DNA of 60,908 bases, taken from positions 1-60,908 of the forward strand of contig JABHVE010000056.1 in the NCBI GenBank assembly GCA_018658465.1, in the 5' to 3' direction. Source of the DNA: Alphaproteobacteria bacterium. GTDB lineage: Bacteria; Pseudomonadota; Alphaproteobacteria; UBA2966; CAIVPW01. The notes under the pieces were generated by a model. The model was not told the DNA's origin, ran no database searches, and saw only the letters and a list, made by a program, of their open reading frames with translations. This document shows, one piece after another, positions 39,928-60,871 of the stretch. Both the position numbers and the translations under genes were made by a program. Numbering within the stretch: position 1 is the first letter of the stretch; every line of letters starts with the position of its first letter.

Positions 39928-40014
39928 CCTAGCGCCAAACGTGTGTTTTCAGGCTAATTGATTCTCACATTTGCAAGAAAGATCGCCCAATTGCGGAATG
40001 CCAAGGATTTTTGC

Positions 40015-40069
40015 TGGTGCCCGCTGCTGGACTCGAACCAGCACGGCCGTTAGGCCAAGGGATTTTAAG
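40015..40069 (-). pseudogene. 3' half of tRNA-Leu(UAA) only, from anticodon loop to CCA. The 5' half is absent.
   Basis: Minus-strand read: CTTAAAA-TCCCT-T-GGCC-TAAC-GGCC-GT-GCTGG-TTCGAGT-CCAGC-AGCGGGC-A-CCA (class II long variable arm). Upstream there is no AGGGA stem, D arm or GCCCGCT acceptor strand. Confidence 0.8.
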
Positions 40070-40195
40070 ACCTCAAACCCAACATTCCTGTACAACCTTT
40101 TTCGGCTCAAATCGGCTGAAAATATGAGTTGTCGTTTATCCACAGCGAGGGCGACCACCCAGAACGTTCCGTAAAAATCTGTGCCTGATTACACA
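40063..40195. repeat. Left copy of a perfect 133-bp direct repeat
   Basis: I compared ttttaagacctcaaaccc...gtgcctgattacaca base by base and found it identical to 60776-60908. It starts inside the tRNA-Leu anticodon loop. Confidence 0.95.
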
Positions 40196-40496: not shown

Positions 40497-43400
40497 TCAA
40501 ATTGCGCCAACAATGGCGTCAGCCAATGCCTGAACGTGGGGCGGGCGGATCATGGAAATATGACTTCCTGGCACTGGAATAACTTGGACCGGCTGCGCGG
40601 TGTGCTGCTGCCAACCCAGATCCGGGCGGCGGGCAAGCCTACCTGGGCCGGAGGTGCTGCCGGACATTTTTCCTTCTGCCCTAAACACCAAGACCCGCCC
40701 GGGGTATAGGCCCCCCTCGTATTCTCCGGTGATGCGGTTGTGATCCAGCATCAGCTTCAGGAAACCCTGGAACTCTTCGACCCTGGTGGCCTCGGGCGCC
40801 AGCTCAAACGCTTTGAATTTGTCAAGAAACAGACTGTTTGTTTCCTCCATGCTGCTTGCCGCCAGCAGTTCCTTGGACAATCCGATGTCGTGGCCCACAA
40901 GTTCCGAAACCTTGTTCGCGAACGCAAAGAGTTTGGCCGTCAAATCCTCCGAACCGGACGTTGAATCGCTGGTCAGATCGGGCGCGATCTGGTCGAGCAC
41001 GGCGACAATCGGGGCGACACCTGTCCTCTGATGAAAAAGGCGCGCCATTTCAAAAGCGGCCAGCGCACCCATCGACCAACCCCCCAGAATCGGAACGCCG
41101 TCGTGGACAATATCAAGCATCGCCTCCAGATAAATTTCCGCCATCTTCGCGATGGAACCGGGCGCGACCCCGCCCTCTCCAAGCGCTGCCTGCAAACCCC
41201 AGAACGGTATCTCAGTACCCAGGCAACGGGCCAAATCGTAATAGCAAAGAACATTTCCTCCGGCAGGATGGACGAAAAAGCACGGGGGTTTTTTCCCCTT
41301 GGGCTGAATGGAGACCAGTGGAGTGGCGGCTGGGGCGTCAGCATCCGCCCGCAGCAAGTCGGCTAACCTCCGTATCGATCCGTACTCGAACATAGCCGAG
41401 AGCGGAATGCTGCGGCCAAATTTCTGGTGGATTGCGGCCATCAATCGCACCGCCAGCAAGGAATGCCCGCCCAATTCGAAAAATCCATCATCGATGCCTA
41501 TTTTTTCGATCTCCAGAACGTCCTGCCAAAGTTTCAACAGCTCCAGTTCCCAAGTATCGCGCGGTGCCCCGCCGGCAAATTTTTCTGCTTCAGGTTTGGA
41601 TTGGGCAAGGGCCCCGCGGTCAATTTTTCCGTTTGGCGTTAGCGGAATAGCGTCCGGGAAAGCGAACGAATTTGGAATCATGTAACCCGGTAGCCGAGAC
41701 TTCAGATAACGGGTCATGGTTTGGGCGCCAATTTCCGATCCCGCCCGACGACGGACGTATGCTGAGATCCGGCTCGTAGGAGCCTTGTCGTGGGGGCCCA
41801 GAACAACCGCCTGTTCCACGTCCGCGTGAGACAAAATCACCTGTTCAATTTCTTCCAAGTCCACACGAAACCCTCTGATCTTGATCTGCCGGTCGGCGCG
41901 GCCGAGAAATTCGATGGCGCCGTTTTCTAACTTTCGGCCCCGGTCGCCGCTGCGGTACAGGCGCTCCCCGAGCGTCCAAGGATCGGCCTGAAATTTTTCG
42001 GCGGTCCAATCGGGACGATTCAAATATCCCCGGGCAACCGTTGGACCACCGATAAAAATTTCCCCATGGATTCCGTCCGGTACCGGCTGGCGCTGACCAT
42101 CCAGCACATACGCGCAGGCGCCGCCGATGGGAAAGCCCAGGGGCACAGTGCTGGCAGCAAACGACTCATTGCTCGGAACTTCATAGGCCAGCACTCCAAC
42201 TGTTGTTTCGCTTGGGCCATAGTGATTCAGTATCCGCAGCGCCGGCGACACGTTACGGATTTCCCGAATTAATTCCGGCAGGCATGTCTCACCACCCAGC
42301 ACCAAGAGCATGCGTGGCAGCAGTGCGGGGGACTGTCCAGGCCCCATCAGAGCCCGCAGATGTGCAGGAACAATCTTTAAGCAATCCACGGGCCGGCGGC
42401 CGAAGTATTCGGCCAGGGCTACCGCGTCAGTGACGATTTTTTCGGGGACCAACACCACGCACCCGCCATTTAACAAAGGCGGGAAAAGCATGGTGTAGCC
42501 GAGGTCCGCGGCGGCTGAGGTGACTGTGGCAAAGCGGTCGCCCGCGCCCAAGCCCATAACGGCCCAAATGCCTTCGCAATAATGGGCCAGATGGCCGTGC
42601 TCGACCTCGATCCCCTTGGGGGCCCCCGTACTGCCGGATGTGTACACAATATATGCCAGCTGGCCCCCTTCCTCATCCAACCCTTGGTCGCCCGTCAAAT
42701 TGGCCGGGTCCTGTGCGCCGACGGCGTCGGCGCATTCGTCCAGATTTATGGCAGTTACGATTTCCAGGATTTCCCCCAAACCCACGTCGACGGCCGAGTC
42801 TGACAGAAGAAAATTTGCCTCGGCGTCCCTCAACATCGCTGCCATTCTATGGGGAGGATTAATAGGATCCAGGGCAACAAAAGGACTGCCCATTTTCCAT
42901 ACAGCCAGGACCCCAACCAACAGTTCCGGCGACCGTGGCAGCAGCAGCGCCACAGGCTCCCCCCGAGACGCTCCTGCCTTTACCAGGTGCCGCGCCAACT
43001 GGTTGGCCCGGGCGTTGAGTTCCTCGTAGTTGAGTTCTGTGTCCGCCCCTTCGGCGGCCATGGCGTACGGTGTTCGCGCAACCTGGGCTTCAAACTGGCG
43101 GTGCAGTGAAGGCGGGGCTGGCGGGGCTGCCACGACCGCCGGCCTCGGAGCTGAAATTTCCGTGTCGAAATATTCCAGCGAGCCCACCGCGCAATCAGGA
43201 TTGGCAATCACGCTTTCAAGCATGGATTGGTAGTGGTCCAACATCCGCCGGACAGTGGCCGCGGCAAAAACATCTTTGGAGTAGTGCAGCGTCAGTGTCA
43301 GCCCGTCGCCGATGTCCTCCGTCCACAGGTTCAGATCGAATTTCGCCAACCCATAATCAATTTTCAGGACTTCCAAGCGCATCCCCGGCACCTCGTAAAG

Positions 43401-44612
43401 GGATGGAACATTTTGGTGGACCAGCATGACCTGGAAAACCGGATGGCTGTTCAGGGACCGGGAGGGATTTAGCTCTCCCACCAGCCGTTCGAAAGGATAC
43501 GACTGATCCTGCACTGCGTTTTGGCAAACCGTCCGGACTTCCCCGAGAAAGATCCTGAAAGGCTTATCCCCGTTCACAGTGGTGCGCGTGACCACGGTAT
43601 TGGCGAAAAGCCCGAAAACGTTTTGAAAAGCGCGGGTGTCACGGTTGGCGGTCTGTGTGCCAACGGTGACTATTTCCTGGCCGGTGTACCGGAACAGCAG
43701 CGCGTGGAAGGTGGCCATGAGCACATGAAACGTGTTTGCCCGCTCGGCCCGGGCAAACTCCTTGATCCGAAAATTTAGGGCGGGGGCAAGCCGGGCGGTT
43801 TCAAGGCCTCCCCGGTGTGTCATCACGGCGGGCCGAGGGTGGTCGGCGGGCAGCTCCAATGGCGCCTCGAAAGATAGGCGGCCGGTCCAGCGTTCGCGCT
43901 GACCGTCGGCGGCGGCGCTGTTCAACCATTCCCGCTCCCAACCAACAAAATCGATGTATTGAAATTTTTGGTTGGGAAGTGGATCCGGCGCGGACGCGGC
44001 CAAAGCCCCATAGATGGCGGAAATCTCCCGGCCCAGCATTGCATTGGACCAGCCATCGGAGACGATGTGGTGGGTCGTGTTAAGCAAGAGGTACTCTTTG
44101 TCCCCCACCTGAACGACTGTGAACGCAAACAGCGGGCCGGTGTCCAACACAAACCGCCGCAACCCTTCCGCACGGGCGATTTCCATGGCCTGGTGTTCGC
44201 GCTCCTTTGGAGGCAGCTCGCGCAAATCCCGCCACGAAAACGCCGGTGCCAATTTTTTGTGCACACGTTGGTACGGTCGTCCTCCATCGGCGTGAAAAGT
44301 CGTACGCAGGATTTCGTGGCGAAGCGAGAAAGTTTTGACGGCTTCCTCCATCCAATGCGCGTTCAGAGGTTCCTCCCGGGTGGCACGCAGGGCACCGGGA
44401 TTGTTGAACGCCGAGGAGGAATCCGGAGAAAGTTGGGTCAGAAACCATATGCGCTCTTGGGCACCGGACAACGGGTAGTGTTGCTGTTGGTTTCGGGGCA
44501 TGTGCCCAACTGTTGGACCAGTACCGCCCCCCGACTCGTTCAACTTCTTTACAAGGGCCTGGATTCGATCCGGCGATAACGAAGCCAATCGCTGACCTAA
44601 ATGGTCAGTCAT
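40497..44612 (-). CDS. NRPS termination module, C-A-T-TE
   Basis: C: LSGAQERIWFL, HHIVSDGWS. A: LAYIVYTSGSTGAPKG, NHYGPSETT, YRSGDRGR, GRADRQIKIRGFRV, PNGKIDR. T: FFELGGHSLLAVR. TE: GGWSMGA. Start at MTDHLG (ATG 44612), overlapping the ER stop by 8 nt. Confidence 0.9.
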   Translation of the reverse strand: MTDHLGQRLASLSPDRIQALVKKLNESGGGTGPTVGHMPRNQQQHYPLSGAQERIWFLTQLSPDSSSAFNNPGALRATREEPLNAHWMEEAVKTFSLRHEILRTTFHADGGRPYQRVHKKLAPAFSWRDLRELPPKEREHQAMEIARAEGLRRFVLDTGPLFAFTVVQVGDKEYLLLNTTHHIVSDGWSNAMLGREISAIYGALAASAPDPLPNQKFQYIDFVGWEREWLNSAAADGQRERWTGRLSFEAPLELPADHPRPAVMTHRGGLETARLAPALNFRIKEFARAERANTFHVLMATFHALLFRYTGQEIVTVGTQTANRDTRAFQNVFGLFANTVVTRTTVNGDKPFRIFLGEVRTVCQNAVQDQSYPFERLVGELNPSRSLNSHPVFQVMLVHQNVPSLYEVPGMRLEVLKIDYGLAKFDLNLWTEDIGDGLTLTLHYSKDVFAAATVRRMLDHYQSMLESVIANPDCAVGSLEYFDTEISAPRPAVVAAPPAPPSLHRQFEAQVARTPYAMAAEGADTELNYEELNARANQLARHLVKAGASRGEPVALLLPRSPELLVGVLAVWKMGSPFVALDPINPPHRMAAMLRDAEANFLLSDSAVDVGLGEILEIVTAINLDECADAVGAQDPANLTGDQGLDEEGGQLAYIVYTSGSTGAPKGIEVEHGHLAHYCEGIWAVMGLGAGDRFATVTSAAADLGYTMLFPPLLNGGCVVLVPEKIVTDAVALAEYFGRRPVDCLKIVPAHLRALMGPGQSPALLPRMLLVLGGETCLPELIREIRNVSPALRILNHYGPSETTVGVLAYEVPSNESFAASTVPLGFPIGGACAYVLDGQRQPVPDGIHGEIFIGGPTVARGYLNRPDWTAEKFQADPWTLGERLYRSGDRGRKLENGAIEFLGRADRQIKIRGFRVDLEEIEQVILSHADVEQAVVLGPHDKAPTSRISAYVRRRAGSEIGAQTMTRYLKSRLPGYMIPNSFAFPDAIPLTPNGKIDRGALAQSKPEAEKFAGGAPRDTWELELLKLWQDVLEIEKIGIDDGFFELGGHSLLAVRLMAAIHQKFGRSIPLSAMFEYGSIRRLADLLRADADAPAATPLVSIQPKGKKPPCFFVHPAGGNVLCYYDLARCLGTEIPFWGLQAALGEGGVAPGSIAKMAEIYLEAMLDIVHDGVPILGGWSMGALAAFEMARLFHQRTGVAPIVAVLDQIAPDLTSDSTSGSEDLTAKLFAFANKVSELVGHDIGLSKELLAASSMEETNSLFLDKFKAFELAPEATRVEEFQGFLKLMLDHNRITGEYEGGLYPGRVLVFRAEGKMSGSTSGPGRLARRPDLGWQQHTAQPVQVIPVPGSHISMIRPPHVQALADAIVGAI

Positions 44613-45744
44613 ACGTGAGCACGAGCTTTCCCGTGTGCTGATATCGGGACATGAGCGTAAAAACCTCACCGATTTGGTCCACGGGGAACACCACCGTCTG
44701 AACCGGGTCAAAATGACCCTGGCCCAGATGATTGACGACCTCCCGCAGGAGCCCATTCATTCGGCCAGGCTGTTTCATGAACAACGAGAGATCAATGGCG
44801 GCAAAGGTCAGGCCTTTGCTGAATGGAGTGAGGTCCAGGGGCGCGCCCTGCGAAATGTCCTTTTTGTCTATCTGCAGGAATCTCCCAAATGGGCGCAGAA
44901 TTTCCAAGCCTCGGCGGACCGCCTCTCCCGACAGGGTATTCAAAATGACATCCACTCCTTCGCCGCGGGTGCGATCCATAATTTCATCGGCGAATGCCAC
45001 AGAGCGGGAATCCATGGGGCCTTCGACGCCCAGGGACACGAGCATCTCGCGCTTTTCCGGCGAGCCGGCCGTCGCGAAGATTTCGGCCCCGGTCCATTTG
45101 GCGATCTGAAGGGCCGACAGACCTACGCCACCGGTGGCCGTGTGAATTAACACCCGCTCGCCGGGCTGAATCCGGGCCACATGGCGCAAGGCGAAATAGC
45201 TTGTGGCGAAGACTGTGGGAATCCCCGCCGCGGCCTCGAACGTCATAGCGTCCGGGATCGGGACGGCTTGTTCAGCCAGCAAAAGGGGTACGGCGCAAAA
45301 ATGACCGTCCTCAATGATAACCCCTTCTGGCGTCATGCTGCCGACGGAAAGGGCGGCCACCCGATCCCCTTCCATGAACCCGGTCACACCTTCTCCGCAA
45401 GCCCGCACAATGCCCGCGTAATCCGTGCCCATCACCGATGGCACCCCAGGCGCGGCTGGATATAAGCCCATGGCGATCATCAGGTCGCGAAAATTGAGGC
45501 TGACCGCCTTGGCCTCCAGCTGAATTTGGCCGGGGCCCGGAGCGAGACCATCCATCTGATGCCTTTGGATCGAGCCGAAATTGCCCGGAGCGCCCAATCC
45601 AAATCCGTAATTTCCCCAGCCAGAGCGATCAGGTGTCTCGCTGTTTCGCGGGGCCGGTTTTTTGGCCGAGCCTACAAGCCGTTCAGCAAGTTTAGCCCGC
45701 TGCTCTGGCGAGAGGTTTGCGAGCCGGGCGGTTAGGTCAGCCAT
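44605..45744 (-). CDS. Stand-alone MDR-superfamily enoyl reductase (PKS_ER-like, trans-acting)
   Basis: LEAKAVSLNFRDLMIAMGLYP, nucleotide-binding IHTATGGVGLSALQIAK. The N-terminal ~45 aa form a non-catalytic extension containing LANLSPEQRAKLAERL. ATGA overlap with the PKS stop. Confidence 0.85.
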   Translation of the reverse strand: MADLTARLANLSPEQRAKLAERLVGSAKKPAPRNSETPDRSGWGNYGFGLGAPGNFGSIQRHQMDGLAPGPGQIQLEAKAVSLNFRDLMIAMGLYPAAPGVPSVMGTDYAGIVRACGEGVTGFMEGDRVAALSVGSMTPEGVIIEDGHFCAVPLLLAEQAVPIPDAMTFEAAAGIPTVFATSYFALRHVARIQPGERVLIHTATGGVGLSALQIAKWTGAEIFATAGSPEKREMLVSLGVEGPMDSRSVAFADEIMDRTRGEGVDVILNTLSGEAVRRGLEILRPFGRFLQIDKKDISQGAPLDLTPFSKGLTFAAIDLSLFMKQPGRMNGLLREVVNHLGQGHFDPVQTVVFPVDQIGEVFTLMSRYQHTGKLVLTYD

Positions 45745-48700
45745 CAGACCTCGTCCAATTCCGAGATCATCTCCTCCAGGGTTTCTTCGCTGGCCATGGA
45801 CACTAGCCGTTCCATCACCGCCTCGGCGAGGCCACGAACGGTGGGATTCTTTATGAACGAATCAATGGGAAGGTCGATGCTAAATGTATCCGAAGTAATG
45901 GCCGTCGCCTGCACCGCCAGCAACGAGTTGCCGCCTACTTCAGTAAAATCATCGTTTGCGCCGATCTGCGAGATGCCCAGGATGCCCTGCCAGATTTCGG
46001 CCACGGCCTTTTCAATGGCGTTTTCTGGGGCTTCGTACGGTGTTGAAAGGGACGGGCGCGCATGGGTGGGGGCCTCGGCTGTGCCCTCGTCATCAGAGTT
46101 GTCCGATTTGGCTCCGGCGTTGTTTTCCTCCTCGATCAACGCATCCAGGTCACGGGTGCTGACCACCACCTGGGGAAAGGACGGTGCGGCGAGGATGCGC
46201 GCGAGAGCATCGACGCCCTCGCCCGGCAGAAGGTCGGTCGGGTTTGCCGTCAGTGATTCCGGCATGCCAGCCCCGGCAATTCCTGGCGTCGTCGAAATGG
46301 TCCCGATGCTAGGCCCCGGCGCTCTTCCCGTGGCGGTTACCCGCTTTAGACTGTATTTCTTGACCTCCACCAGTACCCGGCCGTCAGTGTCCAAAAACGT
46401 GACGTCAAAGGACATGGTTTCGGCTTCGGGCCCGGCTTCTCCATTCAGTCGAATATGACTCCAGAACGTCGCCGTCAGGGGCGCACGTATGTGCACTTGC
46501 CGGTATCCAGTGGGCAAATATGCGCCTTCGGCCACGTGTTTGACGGCGGCGGCCAGCGCCACGTCTGTCAGCGCCGGATGATGCGGGTAGGTAATTAGAT
46601 CGCCGGAAAATTCGTCCGGCAGTTGGATCTCCGCCAGCCATTCGCCGTCGCCTATGCGAAGTCCGTTTAGCGCTTCCCACCGTGGGCCCAGTTCGAGATA
46701 GGGAGCGTCGTCGCCGTCCCGCACGCGATAGAACGGGCGGTCGTCGATTTCTCCGTCGAACCGGGCCACCAACGCGACGACATCGATTGCAGTTGGGGTG
46801 GGCGTCTTGGGAAGTTGGACGGTTCCCCGGAAATGTTCCTGCCAGTGGCCGCCCGGACCATTCCGCTGGCTTTTGAAACTGAACCGATATTTATCCCCGG
46901 CTTCCACAATGCTCAGGCGGACCCGGCGGTCCGTGTCCGGCTCGAACATCAGCGGTGAGATAAAGTAGGTATTTTCCAGAACCGCTGTGCTGCCCGGGTT
47001 CTTCAGGGCCGAGAATCGCGCCATCAAATCAAGAAATCCGGTCCCGACCATCGTTGGGATGCCGAAAACAAAATGGTCGCTGATGATCCAGTCCGATTCA
47101 GGACTCACCAACACGTCATAAAAGTCTTCGCCATGTTCGGCGCCAGCAAAACGCAGCTCCGGGCCATCCTCATCGCGGCTGACCGGGCCAACCCCGCGGC
47201 GGGTGTTCACCTGCTGCCAACGCGCTGCCATTCCAATTTCGGCCCACGACGGCCAATCAATGGAAACAGCGACCCAAGGACGTTTGGCTCGCAGAGATTG
47301 GGCCACGGCGTCCAAGAAGCTGTTGGCCGCACAATAATCCACCCGCCCAGCCTCGCCGAGAATGGACGAGATGGATGAAAACAACACAAAGAAGTCTAGG
47401 TCTTTGTCCTTGAACAACTGGTCCAAAATCAAGGTGCCCCGGACTTTTGCATTTAAGACGTCCGCCGCCATTTCGGGGGTCTTCAGGGAAATGATGCCGC
47501 TACCAGCAACGCCGGCTGCGTGGACGACGCCATGGATCGCGCCGAACCGGCCAACAGCATCGTCGACCACAGTGCGCATCGCGGCCAAGTCGCCGCTGTC
47601 TGCCCGGACGGCGATCACATTGGCGCCTGCCGATTCCAATGCGCGGATCCCGCGGATCCGTTCGCTGGTCGTATCGGTCTCGGAGTGATCGGACAGCCAG
47701 ACGTCCCAATCGCCACAGGCCAACAACGGGGCACGGTGGGTAAGAATCAGCGTGGCGCCCGCAATGTCCTCGGCGATCCGTTGGGCCACGATCAAGCCGA
47801 GCCCCCCCAAGCCGCCACTTATCAAGTATACGCCGTTCTCACGCGATACCGGGCCGAGGCCATCCTTCTCGGCAAGGCGCACCTGCTCGAAGCTCTCGAC
47901 CCAGCGATATCCGTTGCGGTAGGCCGCCAAAGTTCCGGCAGTGCCGAGCCGGGTCTCGGCAATCAAATTGGCGGCGAGTAAATCCGCCTCGTCTGCGGTG
48001 GCAGGAAAGTCGACGTCCACGAACCGCCCGTGTGCCCCCGGAAATTCCCGTCCCCAAACGCGGGCAGGGCCGATGGCCAGAGCTCTTACCGGATCCAACA
48101 CGCCTTCGCCGGCCACGTCGAACACTCCGCTGGCTGCCACCACGAGCCGCACACCGTCGATCACGTTGTGCTTGACCAGCGCTTGCTCCAGGAACAACGG
48201 GCTGTAAAACGCCAGCGCCTCGCTTTCATCCAGAGTTTCAAAGTCCGGCATTCCACCTGCCGTCGCCACGTTCCACAAATGAACGATGCGAGACGGGACC
48301 GTTGCCGCCTGCTTTAGTGACCCAAGTAACGCCTGATAATCATCCGCCACCCCGGGCCGAATGACCCATGTATGCGCGTCAATACTTTCGAAGGCGTTGC
48401 CCCGGCGGACGAGGACCACCTGTTCTCCGAGCTCTCGGATCTGGTTAGCCATTGCGGAGCCCACGCCTTCGCCGTCCTCCAAAATCAGCCAAGAGTCGCC
48501 AGAATTCGTTTCGCCATCTGGTTCCGGGCCCGACAACAATTCCGCAGCAGCTGTCCGCCGCCACGCCGGCAAGTAAAACCACGCGCTCATGTCTGGGTTC
48601 TTCTGGTCGATTTTGCGTACCGAGGATTCGGCGGATGAGGCTCCGGTCAGAAGAAAACGCTGCCGCTCAAACGGATATCCAGGCATGGACACGCGGCGGG

Positions 48701-51305: not shown

Positions 51306-51306
51306 T

Positions 51307-54300
51307 TTATATCTCCCTCAAATTCGACACCCGGCGCGCCACCGGTTTGTGCCGTTTGCGAAGGGCTTGGCGCCGGGCCATATCGGCGGCAACTCGCCCC
51401 GTAGCATCATCGCTCCGGGATAAATGGCGCGCCAAACTGCGGACGGTCGGAAATTGAAACAAGTCGATGTTTGACACCGTGACCCCAAGTTTTTGTTCAA
51501 TCAGCCCGCCTAGTCTGGCCATCATTAGAGAATGGCCGCCAACGTCGAAGAAGCTGTCTTGGGGTCCAAATTGCCCCGTCTCCAGTACTTCCTCCCAGAT
51601 AGCCGCCAACGTCCGTTCGTAATCGTTCGCGTAAATCCGATCCAATTCCGATCGTAACGTTTTCTGATACTCCGGCTTTGGCAGTGCAGCCAAGTCGGCT
51701 TTGCTGTTGGGCAGCATTGGGATTGAATCCAACCTCACAAAATGGGCCGGAATCATGTAGTCCGGCAGCTTTTGCTTCAGGTAGGTACGCAGTTCCGAAG
51801 CGTCGGGACCGCTTTGGTCTTCGTATAGAAGATAGGCCACCAGCCGAACATCGTCCGGTTCGTCCTCTCGAAGGATGATGATTGCGTGTCTGACATTCGG
51901 GTGATCGCCCAAAAGATGCTCGATTTCGCCCAATTCGACACGGTATCCGCGCACCTTCACTTGGCGGTCCAGGCGCCCGAGGAATTCGATATTTCCGCTC
52001 GGCAGGTACCTTGCTTGGTCGCCGGTTTTGAAAAGCCGGGCCCGGGCGTCAGGCTTGAACGGGTCTTGGACGAACGATGCCGCCGTCTGCTCTGGGTCGC
52101 CGTGATATCCGTCGGCGACGCAAACGCCACCAATATAAATTTGGCCGGTAAGGCCGATGGGGACCGGACTCATGTGGTCGTCCAAAATATGAATGCTTGT
52201 GTTGTGGATTGGCTTGCCGACGGGCACCGCCCGCAAGCGCTCGGCGCGCTGGCACTGCCAATGACACACGTAGATCGAGGCCTCGGTGGGGCCATAAAGG
52301 TTATGCAATTCTCCCGCATAGGCGGCGAACACATCTTCTTGCAGAGTGATCGGCAACACCTCGCCGCCGGAGAAAACCCGCTTCAACGATTTGCACGATT
52401 CTACTTGTCCTGAATCTACGAATCCCCGCAACGCAGACGGCACGAATTGAACGTGCGTGATGGTCTCGCGTTGGATCAAACTTGCCAAGGATTCTGACGC
52501 CTGCAGATCGTCGCGCCGCCCCACCACCAGGCGCGCCCCAGTGATCAGCGGGAAAAATATTTCCCAAACCGAAATATCGAAATTGATCGAGGTCCGCATT
52601 AGGACCGCATCGTCCGAAGTCAGCGGGAAGGTGTCGCGCAACCACAGCACAAAATTCGCCGGCCCCCCATTCGACACTCGCACACCTTTGGGACTGCCCG
52701 ACGAGCCCGATGTGTACATCATGTACATCAGGTCACTTGGCCCGGTGGCTGGGGCCTGGACGCCTGGCTCCGCAGAGTGGGATCCGCTGATATTCTCCGC
52801 ATAAACTAGCGTTGACGGCACCGGCCCGAGGCGGTCGCCAAGATCGCGGGTTGTGACGATGAGAGCGAGCCCCGCATCGGCGATGATCGCGTCGATTCGG
52901 TCACGGGGGTAATAGGGATCCAAGGGAACGTAGGCAGCCCCGGACTTCAACACCCCCAGCAGCACGATGATCATCTCGGCGGAAGGCTCAAGATGGATAC
53001 CCACTGGATCGCCAGCACGGGCGCCGTTCTTACCCAAAGTCTGGGCGACGGATTCTGCGCGGGCACCAAGCTCGCCATAAGTGAGCCGCGTTTCGCCGCA
53101 TTTGATGGCCGTGGCGTCGGGCGTCCGCGCGGCCTGGGCCTCAAACAACCCAATCAATCCAAGGTCGCGGTCGTTTTCGTGGGCAGTTGCGTTCCACGCC
53201 TCAATTCGTCGCAAATCTGTCTGGGGCGACACGGCAAAATCCGCCAAGACCCGGTCCGGATGGGCGACCGCCTCGCTCAAAACCTCAACGAACTGGGTCA
53301 GGAACCGTTCGATTGCGACACCGTCAATCAATTCGGTCTTGTAAGACAGCTTCAATTCGAAACCCTGGTCTTGGTCCTGGACGTCAAGAACCAAATCGTA
53401 CTTAGCGCCGGCGTTGCCATCCTCGTGGACACTTAGCCCCAAATGATCTCCGGCCCCAGTGGTAAGCAATTTTTCCTGCAGGGCGAACATCACCTGAAAA
53501 ACCGGCGTCTGATTCAGGCTTCTTTTTGGCCCCAGCAGATCGACTAACTGGTCGAATGGGAAGGACTGATGCTCCAATGAATCCAAGCAGTTTTTCCGAA
53601 CTTCGGCCAACAGCTCGGTGAACGGCTGATCCATCCGCAAGCGCGACCGCAAAACGATGGTATTGGCTAGGAACCCGATCAGATCCTCGGCTTCGGAATG
53701 GCGACGGTTAGCGACGGGGGTTCCCACAAGAATGTCGTCTTGGCCCGAGTACCGGAACAGCAGGACCTTGAAGACCGCCAAAAGCGTCATAAATGCGGTT
53801 GTCTGGTGCGCGCGATTAAATGTGCCCAGACGTTCCTTTAATTCGGCCCTGATCAGATGTGTTCGAATAGATCCTTCAAATCCGCGCACCGGCGGCCGCG
53901 TAAAATCGGCCGGAAATTTCAGATCCGGCGCACTGCCCATCAAGGACTCTCGCCAGTATTCCCGGGCCGGACCGTCATTTTCAGCGCCCGGCCCTTCCCG
54001 CCACGCCGACCAATCCCGATACTGAATTTGTTCGCCGCGGACGGGATCCGGCTCTGCTGCCTGGATGCGGCGGTATTGCTCCAGCAAATCCCGGCAAAAC
54101 AGATTAATGGAGCGGCCGTCGAAAATGATGTGGTGAACTGTGACCAGCAGGCGTTGGCGCTCAGGGCCGACTCGGACGAGCCTAAATCGGTACAGCGGGC
54201 CAAATTCCAGGTCGAACGGGGACGCAGCCTGGGCGGCTGTCAGCCTGTCGGCCTCCCGCGTCGCCTCGGCTTGATTCAATTGGCGCAAATCCACTCGTGG

Positions 54301-56385
54301 AAGTGTCAACGCCTCAAAATTTTCGGTGCGCGCCATCGGTTGACCGTGCTGCACCGCGATAACAGTACGAAGGGACTCATTGCGCCGGACCACAGCGCCC
54401 AAGGCGGTCTCTAGGTCGCCCGGGTCCAAATCCCCTTCAAACCTGACTGAAAACTGGATGTTGTAGGCGATTTGATCCGGGAAAGTCCGGCACAGAAGCC
54501 AAAGACTTCGCTGATTTTGTGAGCAAGGGTAGGTCCCAGTTTGACCCTGCCGCTTGATCGGTCTGCCACCAGGGCCCGAAATTGGATCCAATGCGCCAAG
54601 AAATTCAGAAAAGGCGGCGGGGGTGGCGTGGTCGAAAAAGTCTGCGTAGGACAACGTCGTCCGATGGGCCTCACCAACCCGCGCCAAAACCGCCGCGACT
54701 CCCAAAGAATCGCCCCCCAATTCGAAAAAATCGTCTTGGGTGCCGACGCCGTCGACGCCTAGAACTTCCTCCCATATCCGTACGATCTGCATTTCTCTAA
54801 CGGTGGCCGGTGCGACGAAGGCGTATGCCAGCGCCGGGCGCTCCCGGCCCGGAGCGGGTAAATTGGTGCGATCGATTTTCCCACTAGCGAGTTTTGGAAA
54901 TTTCTCCAGCAGCACAAACGATTTGGGAATCATATAGTCCGGCAGCCGGTCCGCGAGAAAACCGCGCAGGACATCGACGGTCGCGTACCTGGCCAGGCGG
55001 AACGTCAAATAGGCGGCCAAAGTCCGATCCAATTCGTTTTCACGGACGGCCACCACCACCGCTTGGCGGACGGCCGGATGATCTTGGAGCGCCGCTTCGA
55101 TCTCGCCGCATTCAACCCGATGTCCGCGAACCTGCAATTGAAAATCGCGGCGCCCAATAAAATCCAGGTCTCCGCTTTCCGTGCGGCGCGCCATGTCGCC
55201 GGTCTTGAACAGGCGTTTGTCCGAACCGGGCGAAAACGGATTTGGCACGAACCGTTCTTGGGTGGCCTGGGGAAGATTTACGTATCTGCTGGCAACACCA
55301 TCTCCAACGATGCAAATTTCGCCGGGCTCGCTGGCCGGAACGGGGCGCATTGCGCTGTCGAGCAAGTAGATTTCGGTGCCGTCAATCGGACGGCCGATCA
55401 TGACTTGGTCCCCGTCGCGCAGTTCCGTATAGCTGGCATTGGCGACGACTTCCGTGGGCCCGTACAAATTCCACAGGCGGGTGTCCGGGAACACCGAAAA
55501 CGACCGACCCACCAATGATTTGGCGACGGCCTCACCGGACAAAAACACGCCGGATGGAGGCGTAATTTGTTCACCCGTTTCCGACTTTGCCTCTGCGAAA
55601 CAAACCAATTCGTTCCACAAGGTGGGAACGCAATAAAGACCGTGGCGAGGATGATCCCGATACCAGGCCAACAACTCCCCAGGGTTTTTCACGGTCTCCC
55701 TGGGCAGAATATTCAGGGTTCGTCCCAGAAGGAGCGGCGTATAAAATTGGGTCACCCCAGCGGCAAAACACATCGAAGACGACAGCGGCAGGTTCAACTC
55801 GCCCGACTCTACAAACAGATGTTCCCGGTGCCAACGCGTGTAGTAGGCCAGGCTGCGGTGGGAAACGGCGACCCCCTTTGGCTTGCCGGATGACCCAGAT
55901 GTGTAAAGCACATAGGCGGTGCGGTCGGGGTCCTGTGTGACGTCAGGGTTTTCTGCCGCCGAAAATTCCTTTGATTGCACCACGTCTGCGACCGCGACGG
56001 CGCTGGGGCACAACGGCCCCAATCGTTCAAGGTGGCGGGTCTGGGTTAGCAGCACCTGGGATCCGGTGTCTTGCAGTTGAAAGGCTACGCGATCCGTTGG
56101 ATCGGTCGTAGAAACTGGTACATAGGCTCCGCCAGCTTTCAACACACCCAGGATCGCGACGGCAGTGTCCGGCCCCGGATCCAGTGCTATCCCGATGCAA
56201 GCGCCTGGAGTAACGCCCTCTTTCAGCAAATGATGGGCGATGGCGTTGGCTTGCGAATTTATTGCGGAGTAGCTGACTTCAATTGTGCCGAATTGGACAG
56301 CGACGGCGGCTGGGTTCCTGAAGGTCTGGTCTTCAAAAATCCCGTGTACAGTGCAGCTGGTTTGTTCCGTCCTGGGTTCCGGCAT
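51307..56385 (-). CDS. NRPS, A-T-C-A-T (loading didomain plus one elongation module)
   Basis: A1: AYVLYTSGSSGKPKG, NLYGPTE, FKTGDMAR, GRRDFQLQVRGHRV. T1: FFELGGDSLGVA. C: CSQNQRSLWLL, HHIIFDGRS. A2: MYMMYTSGSSGSPKG, NLYGPTE, FKTGDQAR, GRLDRQVKVRGYRV. T2: FFDVGGHSLMMA. Confidence 0.9.
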   Translation of the reverse strand: MPEPRTEQTSCTVHGIFEDQTFRNPAAVAVQFGTIEVSYSAINSQANAIAHHLLKEGVTPGACIGIALDPGPDTAVAILGVLKAGGAYVPVSTTDPTDRVAFQLQDTGSQVLLTQTRHLERLGPLCPSAVAVADVVQSKEFSAAENPDVTQDPDRTAYVLYTSGSSGKPKGVAVSHRSLAYYTRWHREHLFVESGELNLPLSSSMCFAAGVTQFYTPLLLGRTLNILPRETVKNPGELLAWYRDHPRHGLYCVPTLWNELVCFAEAKSETGEQITPPSGVFLSGEAVAKSLVGRSFSVFPDTRLWNLYGPTEVVANASYTELRDGDQVMIGRPIDGTEIYLLDSAMRPVPASEPGEICIVGDGVASRYVNLPQATQERFVPNPFSPGSDKRLFKTGDMARRTESGDLDFIGRRDFQLQVRGHRVECGEIEAALQDHPAVRQAVVVAVRENELDRTLAAYLTFRLARYATVDVLRGFLADRLPDYMIPKSFVLLEKFPKLASGKIDRTNLPAPGRERPALAYAFVAPATVREMQIVRIWEEVLGVDGVGTQDDFFELGGDSLGVAAVLARVGEAHRTTLSYADFFDHATPAAFSEFLGALDPISGPGGRPIKRQGQTGTYPCSQNQRSLWLLCRTFPDQIAYNIQFSVRFEGDLDPGDLETALGAVVRRNESLRTVIAVQHGQPMARTENFEALTLPRVDLRQLNQAEATREADRLTAAQAASPFDLEFGPLYRFRLVRVGPERQRLLVTVHHIIFDGRSINLFCRDLLEQYRRIQAAEPDPVRGEQIQYRDWSAWREGPGAENDGPAREYWRESLMGSAPDLKFPADFTRPPVRGFEGSIRTHLIRAELKERLGTFNRAHQTTAFMTLLAVFKVLLFRYSGQDDILVGTPVANRRHSEAEDLIGFLANTIVLRSRLRMDQPFTELLAEVRKNCLDSLEHQSFPFDQLVDLLGPKRSLNQTPVFQVMFALQEKLLTTGAGDHLGLSVHEDGNAGAKYDLVLDVQDQDQGFELKLSYKTELIDGVAIERFLTQFVEVLSEAVAHPDRVLADFAVSPQTDLRRIEAWNATAHENDRDLGLIGLFEAQAARTPDATAIKCGETRLTYGELGARAESVAQTLGKNGARAGDPVGIHLEPSAEMIIVLLGVLKSGAAYVPLDPYYPRDRIDAIIADAGLALIVTTRDLGDRLGPVPSTLVYAENISGSHSAEPGVQAPATGPSDLMYMMYTSGSSGSPKGVRVSNGGPANFVLWLRDTFPLTSDDAVLMRTSINFDISVWEIFFPLITGARLVVGRRDDLQASESLASLIQRETITHVQFVPSALRGFVDSGQVESCKSLKRVFSGGEVLPITLQEDVFAAYAGELHNLYGPTEASIYVCHWQCQRAERLRAVPVGKPIHNTSIHILDDHMSPVPIGLTGQIYIGGVCVADGYHGDPEQTAASFVQDPFKPDARARLFKTGDQARYLPSGNIEFLGRLDRQVKVRGYRVELGEIEHLLGDHPNVRHAIIILREDEPDDVRLVAYLLYEDQSGPDASELRTYLKQKLPDYMIPAHFVRLDSIPMLPNSKADLAALPKPEYQKTLRSELDRIYANDYERTLAAIWEEVLETGQFGPQDSFFDVGGHSLMMARLGGLIEQKLGVTVSNIDLFQFPTVRSLARHLSRSDDATGRVAADMARRQALRKRHKPVARRVSNLREI

Positions 56386-56570
56386 AAAAATCCATCAAAT
56401 CCATTGCCCACCAGTCATCAATCCGGAGTTGCGGCCGACAAAGCCGCATAACACAAGCCGCAGGGATCTGACTTCGACAAGCCCAGGAACGGGGACCGAT
56501 CTATATAACGTTACCGCCGGGGTTCACTCCGGCGGTAAAATGGCCAAGTCTTGGTTGAGTGGGCGGCCCG

Positions 56571-56873
56571 TCAGGAATTCATGATGTCGGCAACCACACC
56601 ATGATGCTTGAGCACATTCTCGCTCGTCGATTGGGCCTTTGCCGGGTCCACATGGTGGTAACCGGAGATCGCGTGGATGCCATGCCCCGCCCGGACTTTC
56701 GCGGCAATTTCTTTGATTTGGGCGACAATCGCTGGGTCGTCGGTATGCTCGGCAATCACATGGTCCAACGTTTTGGTTCCAGCCCGAACTTCATCGACTT
56801 GCCGGAGAATTATCGCCTTTAATTCCGAATCATCGGTGAAGTGATCCACAATACGCTCGGCCCTGGATGCCAT
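56571..56873 (-). CDS. Hypothetical 100-aa protein with His-rich C-terminal half
   Basis: Strong RBS (GGGAGG, 6 nt upstream). AGHGIHAISGYHHVDP...KHHG. No family recognised and no MbtH motifs. Confidence 0.6.
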   Translation of the reverse strand: MASRAERIVDHFTDDSELKAIILRQVDEVRAGTKTLDHVIAEHTDDPAIVAQIKEIAAKVRAGHGIHAISGYHHVDPAKAQSTSENVLKHHGVVADIMNS

Positions 56874-56950
56874 AAATACCTCCCTGAGAACTTCGTCGGA
56901 TTCATTATGTTTAGCCTATCTGCGAACTTTGGACCCTGGAAACGCCAAAG

Positions 56951-57958
56951 TCAAACTGTCGGAATGGCTTCCATCAACGTGTGGCCCGTGCGCATTGGAT
57001 TAACCTCAACGACTGTAAATCCCGCATCCTCAAGCAAATTGTGCATTTGCGCCAAATTTCTCGCCGTTGTTCCGGTTTCGCAGATGACCATCTGCATGAG
57101 ATCGTCCACAGCTTGGTGGGTGTTAGGCGCCGCGACTGCCGCAAGTGGCTCGATTACCAACAACCGGGCATCAAGCTTGCTGGCCATCGCCCGCCGGAGC
57201 GCCCCCAGGATTTTGGGTGAGCTGGTATCGTTCCAGTTGTGGAGGACGTTTTTGAGGATGTAAAAATCCCCGTTCCCCGGGAGGTCACCAAAAATGTCGC
57301 CGGAGACAAACCGCAGACGATCCGCCAAATCCGGCGTTTCGGTCTTCAGATCCTCGGTCGCCCGGGCACACACGTCCGCCCGGTCAACACAAAGCCCGCG
57401 CAACAAAGGCGCCGCGCCGAGCAAACTTTTTAGTAAAGTCCCGCGCCCGCCGCCGACGTCCACGGCCAGATCACCGGCTGACCAATCCCGCATTTCGGCC
57501 AACAGCGCGCCCACCGGCCGGGTAAGATCATCCATTGCGCGATCATAAACCGCCGCTGCATTCGGAGTCCGGGCCATGTATTCGTACACCGAGCCGCCGA
57601 AGACTTTGGGAAACGCGGACTCGCCAGTCTCCAAACAATGCATTAGTTCACCAAACCCGGCCTGATATTCCCCCGCTGCCAGCATGCAAAAATTGCGCAT
57701 CGAGTGGGGGTCGCCGGACCGCAGCGCCTGCGAATGCTCGGTGTTCGAATATCGGCCATCGGGCGTGGCCTCAAACAGCTCGACCGCGGCAAGCAGGTTC
57801 AGAACTCGGGATAGGACCGCCGCGACAGTGCTCGTGGCTTGTGCAAGATCGGCCGCTGAGCGCGGCCCGTCGTCCAACAGATCTGCAATTCCCAACCGGG
57901 CTGCAGCGCCCACAGCGGAAGCGATCCATCCTCCGCAAGCAAGCTGTAAGGCCAGCAT
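56951..57958 (-). CDS. Class I SAM-dependent O-methyltransferase (COMT / family-2 type with N-terminal dimerisation domain)
   Basis: SAM motif I VDVGGGRGTLL, DRLRFVSGDIF, YILKNVLHNWND, plus a winged-helix-like N-domain. Confidence 0.85.
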   Translation of the reverse strand: MLALQLACGGWIASAVGAAARLGIADLLDDGPRSAADLAQATSTVAAVLSRVLNLLAAVELFEATPDGRYSNTEHSQALRSGDPHSMRNFCMLAAGEYQAGFGELMHCLETGESAFPKVFGGSVYEYMARTPNAAAVYDRAMDDLTRPVGALLAEMRDWSAGDLAVDVGGGRGTLLKSLLGAAPLLRGLCVDRADVCARATEDLKTETPDLADRLRFVSGDIFGDLPGNGDFYILKNVLHNWNDTSSPKILGALRRAMASKLDARLLVIEPLAAVAAPNTHQAVDDLMQMVICETGTTARNLAQMHNLLEDAGFTVVEVNPMRTGHTLMEAIPTV

Positions 57959-58012
57959 TCTGTCGGTCCTGGGGTAATTCGCCGCTAACCGCCGCCTAGT
58001 TCCGGGCGCCGG

Positions 58013-58957
58013 TCACGATTTCGCCGCATGGTGGACGAATTTCAACAAAACGTCCGAGGCGCTGCGGTCGTCGGATTTGGCGGTCAGCAAATTCACGATA
58101 TCCTGGTGAGCAGGGCCCAATTTGCCGTAGGCATCGGTAATTGCCTTCAGGGACGACTTTATGGCACGGGCGTCCTTGAGCATCGATGCCACATCTAGTT
58201 CATAGGGAATTCGGCTCGGATCATCTGCCGGAGTTGGCTGCTTGTTGTGCCATTTCAGGATCTCTTCCACCAAATGATCCGTGGTTTCCTCCAATGGGCC
58301 GTGGCTATCGGCCAACGCGGTCGACAATTTCTCGACATCGGCCTGTGCCTTGGGTGTCATGACGCATAATTCCGCCTCGCCCTTCTTTTGGCGGATCCGA
58401 TTTGTCACGCGCTGGTTGACGATGACAAGAACTTTGGAGACCTTCCCGGCAGTTGATCTCATGGCAACACTGGAAACGAACCCAAGCACGCCAACAGTTT
58501 TATTTTTCACAGCCAGCAACTCCGCTTCCCTGGGGCTAAGGTCCTTGGGCGCAGCGCTTTCTTCGTCTTTCTCTAGCTCGGAGTCGGCCTTGCCTATGGC
58601 GTCGCCGCCGTTCAGCGTCTCCAACTGGTCCGAGGCGGCCTGGAAAACCACACCACGCGTTTTCACTTCCTCGCCGCTGACGCCCTTGGCCAACGCGGAT
58701 ACTAGCTGCCCGTACTGCTTAAGCACGTCGGCCACTGCCCGGCGCAGGGCTAGGGCATCTAACAACCTTCTTTCGGGCGATCCGGCCGGAGCACTGTAGG
58801 ATTTTGCCGTGAGTTTGACGTCGCCAGAGGTCATGACCATCCGGCTGTGCTGAAGGGCTTCCAAAGTCCCGAAGGTGTTGTTTAGTTTTGCGGCCAACGT
58901 TGAAGTTGATTCAGAAAATCCCTCAACCCTGGATCCAACTGTTTCGGTTTTGGCCAT
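58013..58957 (-). CDS. Hypothetical 314-aa soluble, largely helical protein
   Basis: RBS AAGGAG. Clean ORF. No catalytic motif or family recognised. Confidence 0.6.
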   Translation of the reverse strand: MAKTETVGSRVEGFSESTSTLAAKLNNTFGTLEALQHSRMVMTSGDVKLTAKSYSAPAGSPERRLLDALALRRAVADVLKQYGQLVSALAKGVSGEEVKTRGVVFQAASDQLETLNGGDAIGKADSELEKDEESAAPKDLSPREAELLAVKNKTVGVLGFVSSVAMRSTAGKVSKVLVIVNQRVTNRIRQKKGEAELCVMTPKAQADVEKLSTALADSHGPLEETTDHLVEEILKWHNKQPTPADDPSRIPYELDVASMLKDARAIKSSLKAITDAYGKLGPAHQDIVNLLTAKSDDRSASDVLLKFVHHAAKS

Positions 58958-59069
58958 GTAAAATTTCTCCTTTGACTTTGCCTTCGTCCGGGAACACAGA
59001 GCAAGGCAAATTATTAAATTCGTCCTGGCGGGCCACGCTTGGCGCGCGCTGGCGCCGATTTACCCGGCC

Positions 59070-59303
59070 TTATTCGTCCGAACCTTCGTGCAGCTCCTCA
59101 AGCCCTTCGTGCATTTCCGCCAGGCTTTTGAGCACTGTGACCAACCCAAAAATTAAAATGCCATGCTCACTTTGCAAGCCCTCAGAGAGCGAAAACATTT
59201 GTTCTTGCAATTCCCACGCGCTGGCGAAGACCATGAATAACCCAGCCACGATTGTTACGCTGGGTAGGGCTGCAAATCCGGTAATTTTGTACAAAATTTT
59301 CAT
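59070..59303 (-). CDS. Hypothetical 77-aa membrane protein (two TM helices, acidic tail)
   Basis: RBS GGAGG. TM1 ITGFAALPSVTIVAGLFMVFASAW, TM2 GILIFGLVTVLKSL, tail HEGLEELHEGSDE. Confidence 0.55.
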   Translation of the reverse strand: MKILYKITGFAALPSVTIVAGLFMVFASAWELQEQMFSLSEGLQSEHGILIFGLVTVLKSLAEMHEGLEELHEGSDE

Positions 59304-59359
59304 GGTAATCCTCCGGTGATTGTTTCGGATCAGTTCCTAGGCGTCCGACCGATGAAAGG

Positions 59360-60127
59360 TCAGCCGGATTTTAGCGCATCGGCGGTCATGGCCACCACAT
59401 CGATCGTCACATTGTCAGATGCTGGCCTCCGAATTGCCAGGGCCATCGAGTGAGCGCCCGTGAGGCGCCAAAGGCTGAAGTGCCAGCGACCGGTATGGTC
59501 GAATACCTTGTCGGTAAAACTAATCTGTGGGGACGAGCCCCGCAAGTCAAAGGCGAAAAGGTCGAGGGGTGCGGCCAGGCCTTCCCCAATGGCTTTGATA
59601 AAAGATTCTTTCAAGGTCCATTGGTCATAAAACATTGGCGCCTGGTCAGAGGGCCGTGCCGCCAGCAAATCGTCGATTTCGGGGGGTGCGAAAAACCGGG
59701 CTGCCACCGCCAGAAAATCAGTGGCCCTGTTGTGGGCCTCCGCATCCACACCCACGTCGAAACCGTTCGCCACCGCGCAAGCCACAAGTCCGTCCGTATG
59801 GGTGATGCTGAACCGCAAATCGGATTGGCTTTCTGGTTCCGCCACCATCGGTCGGCCATTCTTATTGGTTTGGAAAACCCAAGCAGATGCCGGCGTGCCG
59901 GCAAATCGCGCCAGCATCGAGCGCAGAAGAATGCGGGCAGAAATAAATCGCGTTTGGTCGGCTTCGACACGCAGCTGATCATGACGGTGCCACTCGGCGC
60001 TGGACAGTGCTTTGCGGGCGGAAAGACTGCTTGCTGCCAAGGCAATTTCCGCGCCCGCCAGATACCACAGCCAAACGGTTCCGGTGGGGGCAGCCGCCGC
60101 TGGCAGCTCCGGCTCGCGCTGGGTCAT
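59360..60127 (-). CDS. Sfp-type 4'-phosphopantetheinyl transferase
   Basis: FSITHTDGLVACAV, GVDAE, and WTLKESFIKAIGEGL. Confidence 0.85.
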   Translation of the reverse strand: MTQREPELPAAAAPTGTVWLWYLAGAEIALAASSLSARKALSSAEWHRHDQLRVEADQTRFISARILLRSMLARFAGTPASAWVFQTNKNGRPMVAEPESQSDLRFSITHTDGLVACAVANGFDVGVDAEAHNRATDFLAVAARFFAPPEIDDLLAARPSDQAPMFYDQWTLKESFIKAIGEGLAAPLDLFAFDLRGSSPQISFTDKVFDHTGRWHFSLWRLTGAHSMALAIRRPASDNVTIDVVAMTADALKSG

Positions 60128-60574
60128 ATTTAAAGTCCAAGTGCTTGGGCAGGGGCCGGGCGTGGATTCACCGAAGTAATTGCGCTTGGAACTCCCAGGG
60201 AAGCAATGCCAAATATTTTCTGGCGAGCTTTAAAAAAAGCGCCACGATGGTGAGGGCGTCTTCCGTAAGAAGCACCGTATTTCGGGTGTCGACCCCCGGC
60301 CCGAGGAACGATTGGACGGACGCTATTCCATCTCCGCTGCTGGTCCTCAAGGATGACGGAATGCTGGAGTAGCCGAGCAGAGAGCTGCCCACTAACTTAT
60401 CGAGAGCCATTGTGCGGGTCGCGGAGATTAGTTTTCGATGTACGCTGGTACGGCAACTGTAGGTCGTGATAAGAGAGTGTAATCGGGGTTTAGAAATTAC
60501 AGTCGCGCGCACTCAATAATCCTAGGGATGGCTGTGCTGCTCGCGTGTGATTTCAGGTTTTTTCGCGCCTGCCT

Positions 60575-60871
60575 CTATCCATCGTAGTAGAGAACGGCAA
60601 GGTATTCTTCGAGATTGTCCTCGTCGATCACGGTTTCGGGCCACCCAGACCAATCAGGGTCGTTGGGATCGTAGTCCAACGCAAGAGGCACGGGCACCGG
60701 GAAAAGCGGATACGACGCGCGTTCTAGGAGCCACTGACTACCGTCAACCAGTTGTTCCCCAATTGACGGAGCGTTTTTTAAGACCTCAAACCCAACATTC
60801 CTGTACAACCTTTTTCGGCTCAAATCGGCTGAAAATATGAGTTGTCGTTTATCCACAGCGAGGGCGACCAC
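60575..60871 (-). CDS. Hypothetical 98-aa protein. Its first 32 codons lie inside the right copy of the 133-bp repeat.
   Basis: GTG start. An in-frame TAA at 60902-60904 bounds the ORF. The C-terminal part (DPNDPDWSGWPETVIDEDNLEEYLAVLYYDG) looks protein-like. No family recognised. Confidence 0.4.
   Translation of the reverse strand: MVALAVDKRQLIFSADLSRKRLYRNVGFEVLKNAPSIGEQLVDGSQWLLERASYPLFPVPVPLALDYDPNDPDWSGWPETVIDEDNLEEYLAVLYYDG

Follow-up and report, generated by a model that had tools for sequence, protein, structure and literature searches.

An intact hybrid NRPS-PKS-NRPS gene cluster with a detached enoyl reductase on a putative integrase-associated island of an alphaproteobacterium

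A nine-gene block of hybrid synthase genes

Contig JABHVE010000056.1 (assembly GCA_018658465.1), analysed here over 60,908 nucleotides (nt), apparently its full length, and referred to as the window, comes from a marine Alphaproteobacteria bacterium and carries at positions 40497-60127 a gene cluster that combines nonribosomal peptide synthetase (NRPS) and type I polyketide synthase (PKS) genes. An initial annotation, made from the letters alone, had described nine co-directional minus-strand genes in this block, and we located all of the open reading frames (ORFs) at the coordinates claimed. The two NRPSs are built from adenylation (A), thiolation or carrier (T) and condensation (C) domains, with a thioesterase (TE) at the end of the second; the PKS comprises ketosynthase (KS), acyltransferase (AT), ketoreductase (KR), dehydratase (DH) and carrier domains, and the enoyl reductase (ER) is encoded separately. 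In order of transcription the genes are (aa, amino acids):

59360..60127, minus strand: Sfp-type 4'-phosphopantetheinyl transferase (PPTase), 255 aa (PF01648, PF22624)
59070..59303, minus strand: 77-aa protein with a single hydrophobic N-terminal segment, kept in the related locus L009, lineage-specific
58013..58957, minus strand: 314-aa protein, kept in L009, lineage-specific
56951..57958, minus strand: class I S-adenosylmethionine (SAM) methyltransferase of the aromatic small-molecule O-methyltransferase type, 335 aa, core gene (PF00891, PF08100)
56571..56873, minus strand: 100-aa protein, predicted all-helical, core gene just upstream of NRPS1 (homologues, AF2 model)
51307..56385, minus strand: NRPS1, 1692 aa, A1-T1-C-A2-T2 (A1 at about aa 12-512, C 616-1054, A2 1081-1570, T2 1592-1655)
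45744..51305, minus strand: type I PKS, 1853 aa, KS (12-387)-AT (535-839)-psiKR/KR (908-1356)-DH (1391-1661)-carrier (1767-1830)
44605..45744, minus strand: stand-alone PKS-type ER, 379 aa, docking-like helix at the N-terminus (Protein Data Bank (PDB) matches, motif)
40497..44612, minus strand: NRPS2, 1371 aa, C-A3-T3-TE (Pfam, motifs)

The four synthase genes are tightly packed. NRPS1 and PKS are separated by a single nucleotide (position 51306) and ER and NRPS2 share the 8 nt ATGACTGA (44605-44612), both as first annotated; the ATGA overlap that had been placed at 45744 is in fact TGATG, with an overlap of 1 nt between PKS and ER. NRPS2 lies within a longer ORF reaching 44756, and its start at 44612 corresponds to Met49 of the longest ORF, which gives the 1371-aa protein that is also called in relatives.

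Domains, active sites and selection

Pfam bore out every domain assignment of the initial annotation. NRPS1 matched AMP-binding (6.9e-153, two stretches), Condensation (1.6e-89) and PP-binding (two stretches); the PKS matched KS (5.9e-63), AT (3.2e-51), KR (9.5e-46), PS-DH (8.9e-25) and PP-binding; the 379-aa protein matched ADH_N and ADH_zinc_N, as a medium-chain dehydrogenase/reductase; and NRPS2 matched C (4e-88), A, PP-binding and Thioesterase PF00975 (8e-21). For comparison we used five related loci, L009 (89% identical), L010, L013, L014 and L016, which together with the window make six. The core catalytic motifs that had been reported intact were all found, as were several more, and each is kept in the five homologous loci: KS Cys/His/His (CSTS, HGTAT, GHT), AT GHSVGE and HAFH, the Tyr and the Rossmann motif of the KR, His1411 and Asp1581 of the DH, the two HHxxxDG motifs (HHIIFDG in NRPS1, HHIVSDGWS in NRPS2), the four carrier serines (GGDSL and GGHSL in NRPS1, GGNSL in the PKS, GGHSL in NRPS2), the GWSMG and His (GxH) of the NRPS2 TE, and the GGVG (NADPH) motif of the ER.

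Ratios of nonsynonymous to synonymous substitution rates (dN/dS) against L009 were 0.16-0.32 for all nine genes, including those coding for proteins of no recognized family (0.19 for the 100-aa, 0.26 for the 77-aa and 0.24 for the 314-aa gene; 0.32 for the PPTase), indicating that the nine behave as real, constrained genes. Domains, motifs and selection thus agree with the proposed reading of the block as a single hybrid NRPS-PKS-NRPS line that is served by an ER in trans and a COMT-type methyltransferase and comes with an Sfp-type PPTase of its own. The A, C, carrier, KS, AT and release domains that define modular hybrid NRPS/type I PKS thiotemplate lines are all present, which would place the predicted line among them.

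Specificity codes of the A domains

To read the substrate codes, A domains were aligned to a GrsA-PheA fragment and the residues at the aligned positions were taken. The GrsA-PheA fragment itself yielded DAWTIAAICK with Lys at position 517, so the numbering is self-consistent. Applied to unrelated A domains, the extraction gave back the canonical codes for Asn, Gln, Gly, beta-Ala, Ser and Ala, which supports the method. The window codes are AATYFSLANK for A1, DIWQFGLIYK for A2 and DLTKVGHVGK for A3. Across the six loci, whose synthases are only about 46-59% identical, A2 is invariant and A1 (AATY[F/L]SLANK) and A3 (DLTK[V/I]GHVGK) each vary at one position.

In A1, Asp235 is replaced by Ala and the domain should therefore not bind an alpha-amino group; we infer that it loads a carboxylic acid other than an alpha-amino acid. 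A2 appears Gln-like and A3 Asp-type, the latter agreeing at nine of ten positions with the Asp code. The skeleton predicted in the initial annotation (a starter acid followed by an amino acid, a reducible C2 unit and a second amino acid, with release by the TE) is compatible with these codes. A search for A1 homologues returned only generic names among the matches. Stand-alone A-T loaders from unrelated NRPS clusters (P0165, P0166, P0169, P0170 and P0181) share the Asp235-less code in the form AA[T/S]Y.[S/T]LANK, a cluster of Flavobacteriaceae being among them. The sister clade carries the code DAKN.GLANK, and the gene context of P0169 gave no hint of the A1-type substrate.

The reductive part of the PKS and the detached ER

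Within aa 908-1830 of the PKS, DH follows KR instead of preceding it, and the terminal carrier is of the NRPS type (GGNSL), nearest to NRPS peptidyl carrier proteins (PCPs); both features recur in all five homologous loci. The nearest relatives of the KR are PksJ and MlnE, which are trans-AT KRs, and those of the DH are CurK, CurF and PksJ. The KR-then-DH order is unusual, yet every catalytic residue is present, and the HAFH motif indicates a putative malonyl-type AT.

The best PDB matches of the 379-aa ER are in-line ER domains of PKSs (MAS 1.7e-67, CurK 3.7e-55, PpsC 5.4e-54), which identifies the protein, as judged by sequence, as a detached PKS ER domain. We considered a crotonyl-CoA carboxylase/reductase (CCR) as an alternative and rejected it, the PDB CCR match being 8.9e-12 and the TIGR01751 score 71.5 bits against a cut-off of 378.55. 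The ER carries an N-terminal extension of about 55 aa with a conserved helix, RLAxLSPExRAxL, and NRPS2 opens with a similar one, the first 25 aa of ER (45670-45744) and of NRPS2 (44538-44612) sharing the pattern R(L/I)AxL(S/A)(P/S).... The likeness of these N-terminal helices suggests that ER and NRPS2 both dock on the C-terminal tail of the PKS.

A conserved core in distant relatives

A six-gene core was constant among the related loci: the small protein, NRPS1, PKS, ER, NRPS2 and a PF00891 methyltransferase. The synthases are 46-59% identical to those of the window in pairwise comparison and the small protein 28-53%; PKS homologues are of equal length at 50-57% identity. In all six loci the ER gene is flanked by those for PKS and NRPS2, which it overlaps or abuts, and in the five relatives a homologue of the 100-aa protein lies directly upstream of NRPS1 each time and the methyltransferase is always present, at varying position. 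The hosts, beside the marine alphaproteobacterium of the window, are Oxalobacteraceae (L014, and L013 as judged by a neighbouring gene) and, for L010, an acidobacterium whose Lon protease marks it as Terracidiphilus-like. The core was also found on another metagenome contig, and family members occur in cultivated Oxalobacteraceae. A scan of genome contigs with the PKS returned only distant KS matches of 24-30% identity among the matches listed.

Two of the distant loci hold extra tailoring functions (L010 20837-24321, L016 20927-23634), and probably make further-tailored congeners: both add a radical SAM enzyme, of the B12-binding type in L016, and the L010 methyltransferase forms a fusion with an AHSA1/SRPBCC domain. 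In L009 the cluster adjoins rpoD and a chorismate mutase gene (CM_2, L009 277-567), with no integrase there; the chorismate mutase might conceivably supply an aromatic starter.

The 100-aa protein

Profile searching found 27 representatives of the 100-aa family at E<=1e-3 among 1.84 billion, about 24 of which are themselves around 100 aa long, and the family has an internal repeat, (I/V)IxxFTxDPxLxAxI. An AlphaFold (AF2) model built with 23 sequences comprises six helices at a predicted local distance difference test score (pLDDT) of 94.7, against 63.5 for a model built with five sequences. Foldseek comparison of the model with PDB folds gave nothing significant (best E=2.5), Pfam (E<=0.01) and PHROG gave no match, and the sole NCBIfam match, SfnB, scored 15.2 bits against a cut-off of 430.9. 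An MbtH-like NRPS partner was considered and rejected, as the protein has no PF03621 match and its all-helical model no PDB neighbour. The initial annotation had called the protein His-rich; the window copy does contain nine His, but these are not conserved across the family, and a role as a metal binder was rejected on that ground.

Methyltransferase, PPTase and lineage-specific genes

The methyltransferase matched PF00891 (Methyltransf_2, 5.8e-29) and PF08100 (Dimerisation, 3.5e-13). Its nearest solved structures, 6c5b, CalO6, MmcR, CalO1, AlpH and PhzM, act on aromatic small molecules, placing the enzyme nearest to phenolic O-methyltransferases, and the methyl group therefore most likely goes to a hydroxyl of some aromatic or enolic moiety in the starter.

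The PPTase has the features of the Sfp type (PF01648 (ACPS) 6.7e-17, PF22624, PF17837), with a partial match to a HetI-like NCBIfam model (108 bits, cut-off 370). L009 has it too, but no counterpart lies within 10 kb of the core genes of L010, L013, L014 and L016. Together with the 77-aa and 314-aa genes it is confined to the alphaproteobacterial version of the cluster, and the three are lineage-specific cargo of the probable mobile island described below. Neither small gene product could be placed: the 77-aa protein had no match in Pfam, NCBIfam or PHROG, and the 314-aa protein none in Pfam, NCBIfam, PHROG or PDB sequences.

A probable integrase-associated island in two structural states

The block is bounded by the following features:

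60776..60908: direct repeat of 133 nt, right copy, cut by the contig end (repeat search)
60247..60360, plus strand: tyrosine integrase 5' remnant, 38 codons (comparison with L020 and L023)
40063..40195: direct repeat of 133 nt, left copy, ending in CTTAAAA on the minus strand
40012..40062, minus strand: tRNA-Leu(UAA)-like 3' fragment abutting the repeat (read by eye from the sequence)

The two repeat copies are 100% identical and spaced 20,713 bp apart. In three independent contigs from other assemblies (L017, L018 and L021) the sequence crosses one repeat copy, past 60908, and goes on at 40196, joining the PPTase side head-to-tail to the NRPS2 side. Two further loci, L020 and L023, agree with the window as far as 60360 and no further, continuing into a PF00589/phrog_1 integrase; a complete tyrosine integrase (380 aa) lies 119 nt upstream of a PPTase identical to that of the window in both of them and in a 152,649-nt contig (JGI 3300072015), which shares its far flank with the window. 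The window integrase is identical to the full-length form over its first 35 residues and then diverges, with 38 codons retained and a stop four codons later (60372); the breakpoint at about 60360-60372 shows the microhomology TCCGTCA. The body of the integrase is replaced by a 415-nt segment (60361-60775), in whose frames we saw no integrase-like sequence by eye. Two minus-strand ORFs in this segment and its edges, of 114 aa (60168-60512) and 98 aa (60575-60871), are called genes in L018 and L021 and had no Pfam or PHROG match.

On the opposite side, the minus strand of 40012-40062 reads as a variable arm, a T arm (GCTGG/CCAGC) and an acceptor 3' strand with CCA, with no 5' half, and begins just after the anticodon-loop-like heptamer CTTAAAA that ends the left repeat. 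A 25-mer of this fragment is unique in the window. ARAGORN and Rfam did not call it, so the tRNA-Leu(UAA) assignment stays a reading by eye. Base composition gave no GC anomaly or island signal, the sole contig found in a search for an empty site through the flanking kinase carries the island, and megablast against plasmids gave no match.

From the repeat, the junctions and the integrase we conclude that the cluster is probably cargo of an integrase-associated island with at least two structural states, one integrase-linked and one head-to-tail, the head-to-tail junction reflecting either a tandem copy or a circle. The arrangement resembles tRNA-associated integrase islands in having, in other assemblies, a tyrosine integrase at one edge and, at the other, a tRNA-like 3' fragment with a direct repeat, and in that the close relative L009, whose homology to the window ends at the start of the PPTase, holds the cluster at another chromosomal site. 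It differs from them in the placing of the repeat, which is 5' of the anticodon-loop sequence and does not cover the tRNA 3' end, in the truncation of the window integrase, and in the missing GC anomaly and empty site.

Proposed assembly of the product

We propose, with a probability of roughly 70%, that the locus encodes a functional, horizontally mobile four-module hybrid assembly line acting in the following steps, which assume colinear assembly-line logic. The four carriers would be primed by the island's own Sfp-type PPTase. A1-T1 would load a carboxylic acid of a class other than alpha-amino acids, and C-A2-T2 would add a Gln-like amino acid. The KS would accept the acyl-aminoacyl chain for one malonyl extension through the HAFH-type AT, and KR and DH in cis, with the detached ER in trans (probably recruited by its N-terminal docking-like helix), would together produce a saturated gamma-amino-acid unit on the PCP-like carrier. 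C-A3-T3 would then add Asp and the TE would release, hydrolytically, an N-acyl pseudotripeptide acid, with one methyl group added by the COMT-type methyltransferase. The expected product would be a singly methylated acid of the form N-acyl (possibly aroyl) Xaa-psi[CH2CH2]-CO-Asp. The 100-aa helical protein would be an obligatory partner of the line, and in the alphaproteobacterial lineage the cluster would travel with its own PPTase on a tyrosine-integrase-associated unit of about 21 kb.

Several points weigh against this proposal. The thiotemplated product is a prediction, as is the kind of acid that A1 would load. The A2 code agrees at eight of ten positions with the Gln code (DAWQFGLIDK) but also at seven of ten with the Gly code (DILQLGLIWK). 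The methyltransferase is labelled 'C-methyltransferase' by JGI and weakly matches a 2-ketoarginine methyltransferase model (NCBIfam); the PF00891 family includes N- and C-methyltransferases, and the enzyme may methylate C or N instead of O. Pfam agrees with the initial annotation that the block contains no epimerisation domain, in-line methyltransferase, regulator or exporter gene, and the last two of these absences count here, as do scans for promoters and terminators that gave nothing above chance. The truncation of the window integrase makes current mobility uncertain. Finally, KR before DH and an ER in trans leave room for iteration or an unsaturated product.

Iteration is one alternative, which we think improbable. 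A PKS working repeatedly with the trans ER would build a longer saturated omega-amino-acyl chain before NRPS2 and yield a lipid-like pseudopeptide. The KR-then-DH order and separately encoded ER are atypical of colinear cis-AT modules, there is a partial PfaA-like match, and the initial annotation had also allowed several C2 units. By contrast, there is just one KS, placed straight after an NRPS carrier, and a PCP-like carrier followed by a C domain of its own fits a one-pass hand-over; no sequence feature is known to be diagnostic of iteration.

A more far-reaching version of the proposed colinear line joins two ideas: that the 100-aa six-helix protein is a new dedicated partner (it might, for instance, activate the loading A domain that lacks Asp235, or serve as a docking scaffold), and that the 20.7-kb unit of synthases and own PPTase is a self-contained cassette still excising or amplifying in pelagic Alphaproteobacteria, with its core moved between Alphaproteobacteria, Oxalobacteraceae and Acidobacteriota. 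We hold this combination as a speculative and on the whole unlikely extension; if true, the product would be a new aryl/acyl gamma-amino pseudotripeptide scaffold.

Relation to characterised systems

We found no characterised counterpart among plasmids, named close homologues or the open-access literature searched for the codes, the architecture and the island or biosynthetic gene cluster. The nearest described architecture found is that of the detoxin/rimosamide/miramide lines of Streptomyces, which also start with A-T-C-A-T, extend the second residue by one malonyl in a single PKS module and end in a C-A-T-TE NRPS (PMC9503745). Those lines use a trans AT, a KR without DH or ER, and two TEs joined by a depsi bond; their C-A-T-TE protein has a starter-type C domain, their A2 is specific for Pro, and a TauD dioxygenase is present (PMC9503745). 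The window cluster, in contrast, has a cis AT, KR, DH, a trans ER, a single TE, a predicted non-amino-acid starter and Gln-like and Asp codes. We rejected a detoxin/rimosamide-type identity, since its defining features (AT-less KS/KR PKS, two TEs, TauD, Pro-specific second A) are not found here.

The cluster family might nevertheless have been characterised under some product name, for which we see a slim chance: members occur in cultivated Oxalobacteraceae and our literature search was confined to open-access papers. Against this, no named homologue appeared among the best 120 PKS matches or among the A1 matches, cluster members being named generically, no open-access paper contained the codes, and the sole architecture match is the non-equivalent detoxin/rimosamide type. 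The orphan status assigned in the initial annotation is thus not refuted, and not proven.

The chemistry proposed for the PKS module has precedents. In syrbactin (syringolin/glidobactin) and tubulysin modules an aminoacyl thioester is extended by one C2/C3 unit; KR and DH, joined by an ER in tubulysin, turn the combined amino acid and malonyl unit into a gamma-amino acid, vinylogous or saturated, within a peptide. Their reductive domains are in-line and in the usual order, and gene organisation, tailoring and taxa differ from the window cluster; the analogy is a functional one. The window ER aligns end to end with the in-line PKS ER domains of MAS, CurK, PpsC and SpnB (1.7e-67 to 9.3e-47), from which it differs as a bacterial detached modular copy with an added N-terminal segment of about 55 aa bearing a docking-like helix as on NRPS2; like LovC of the LovB/LovC pair it is a separate polypeptide, an analogy of function alone. 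That this ER acts on the starter acid or the released product instead, leaving a residue of the vinylogous kind seen in syrbactins (alpha,beta-unsaturated gamma-amino), would fit a separate protein whose PKS interaction is deduced from a motif alone, but is very doubtful given the position of its gene between PKS and NRPS2 at overlapping or abutting junctions in all six loci, its kinship with in-line PKS ER domains and its conserved NADPH motif.

The locus is an intact, uncharacterised cluster for a small hybrid peptide-polyketide and a sound genome-mining lead with ordinary assembly-line logic. Being compact (20 kb), complete and equipped with its own PPTase, it should be unusually easy to express heterologously, and a core with near-invariant codes across marine Alphaproteobacteria, soil Oxalobacteraceae and Acidobacteriota suggests one defined, selectively useful and undescribed small molecule. 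The cluster offers test cases for a detached modular ER that apparently docks like an NRPS subunit, for a small-protein family tied to NRPS loading, and for a biosynthetic cluster found in ocean metagenomes in integrase-linked and head-to-tail states. It does not overturn known principles; its interest lies in being a tractable orphan that is shared across phyla and has a few unusual parts.

Elsewhere in the window, a ChpT-type histidine phosphotransferase gene adjoins a CheA-like kinase gene (27983-28609 and 25735-27792), and a Host_attach/baeRF12 protein is encoded at 33354-33905; all of this is an ordinary alphaproteobacterial signalling setting with no relation to the cluster.

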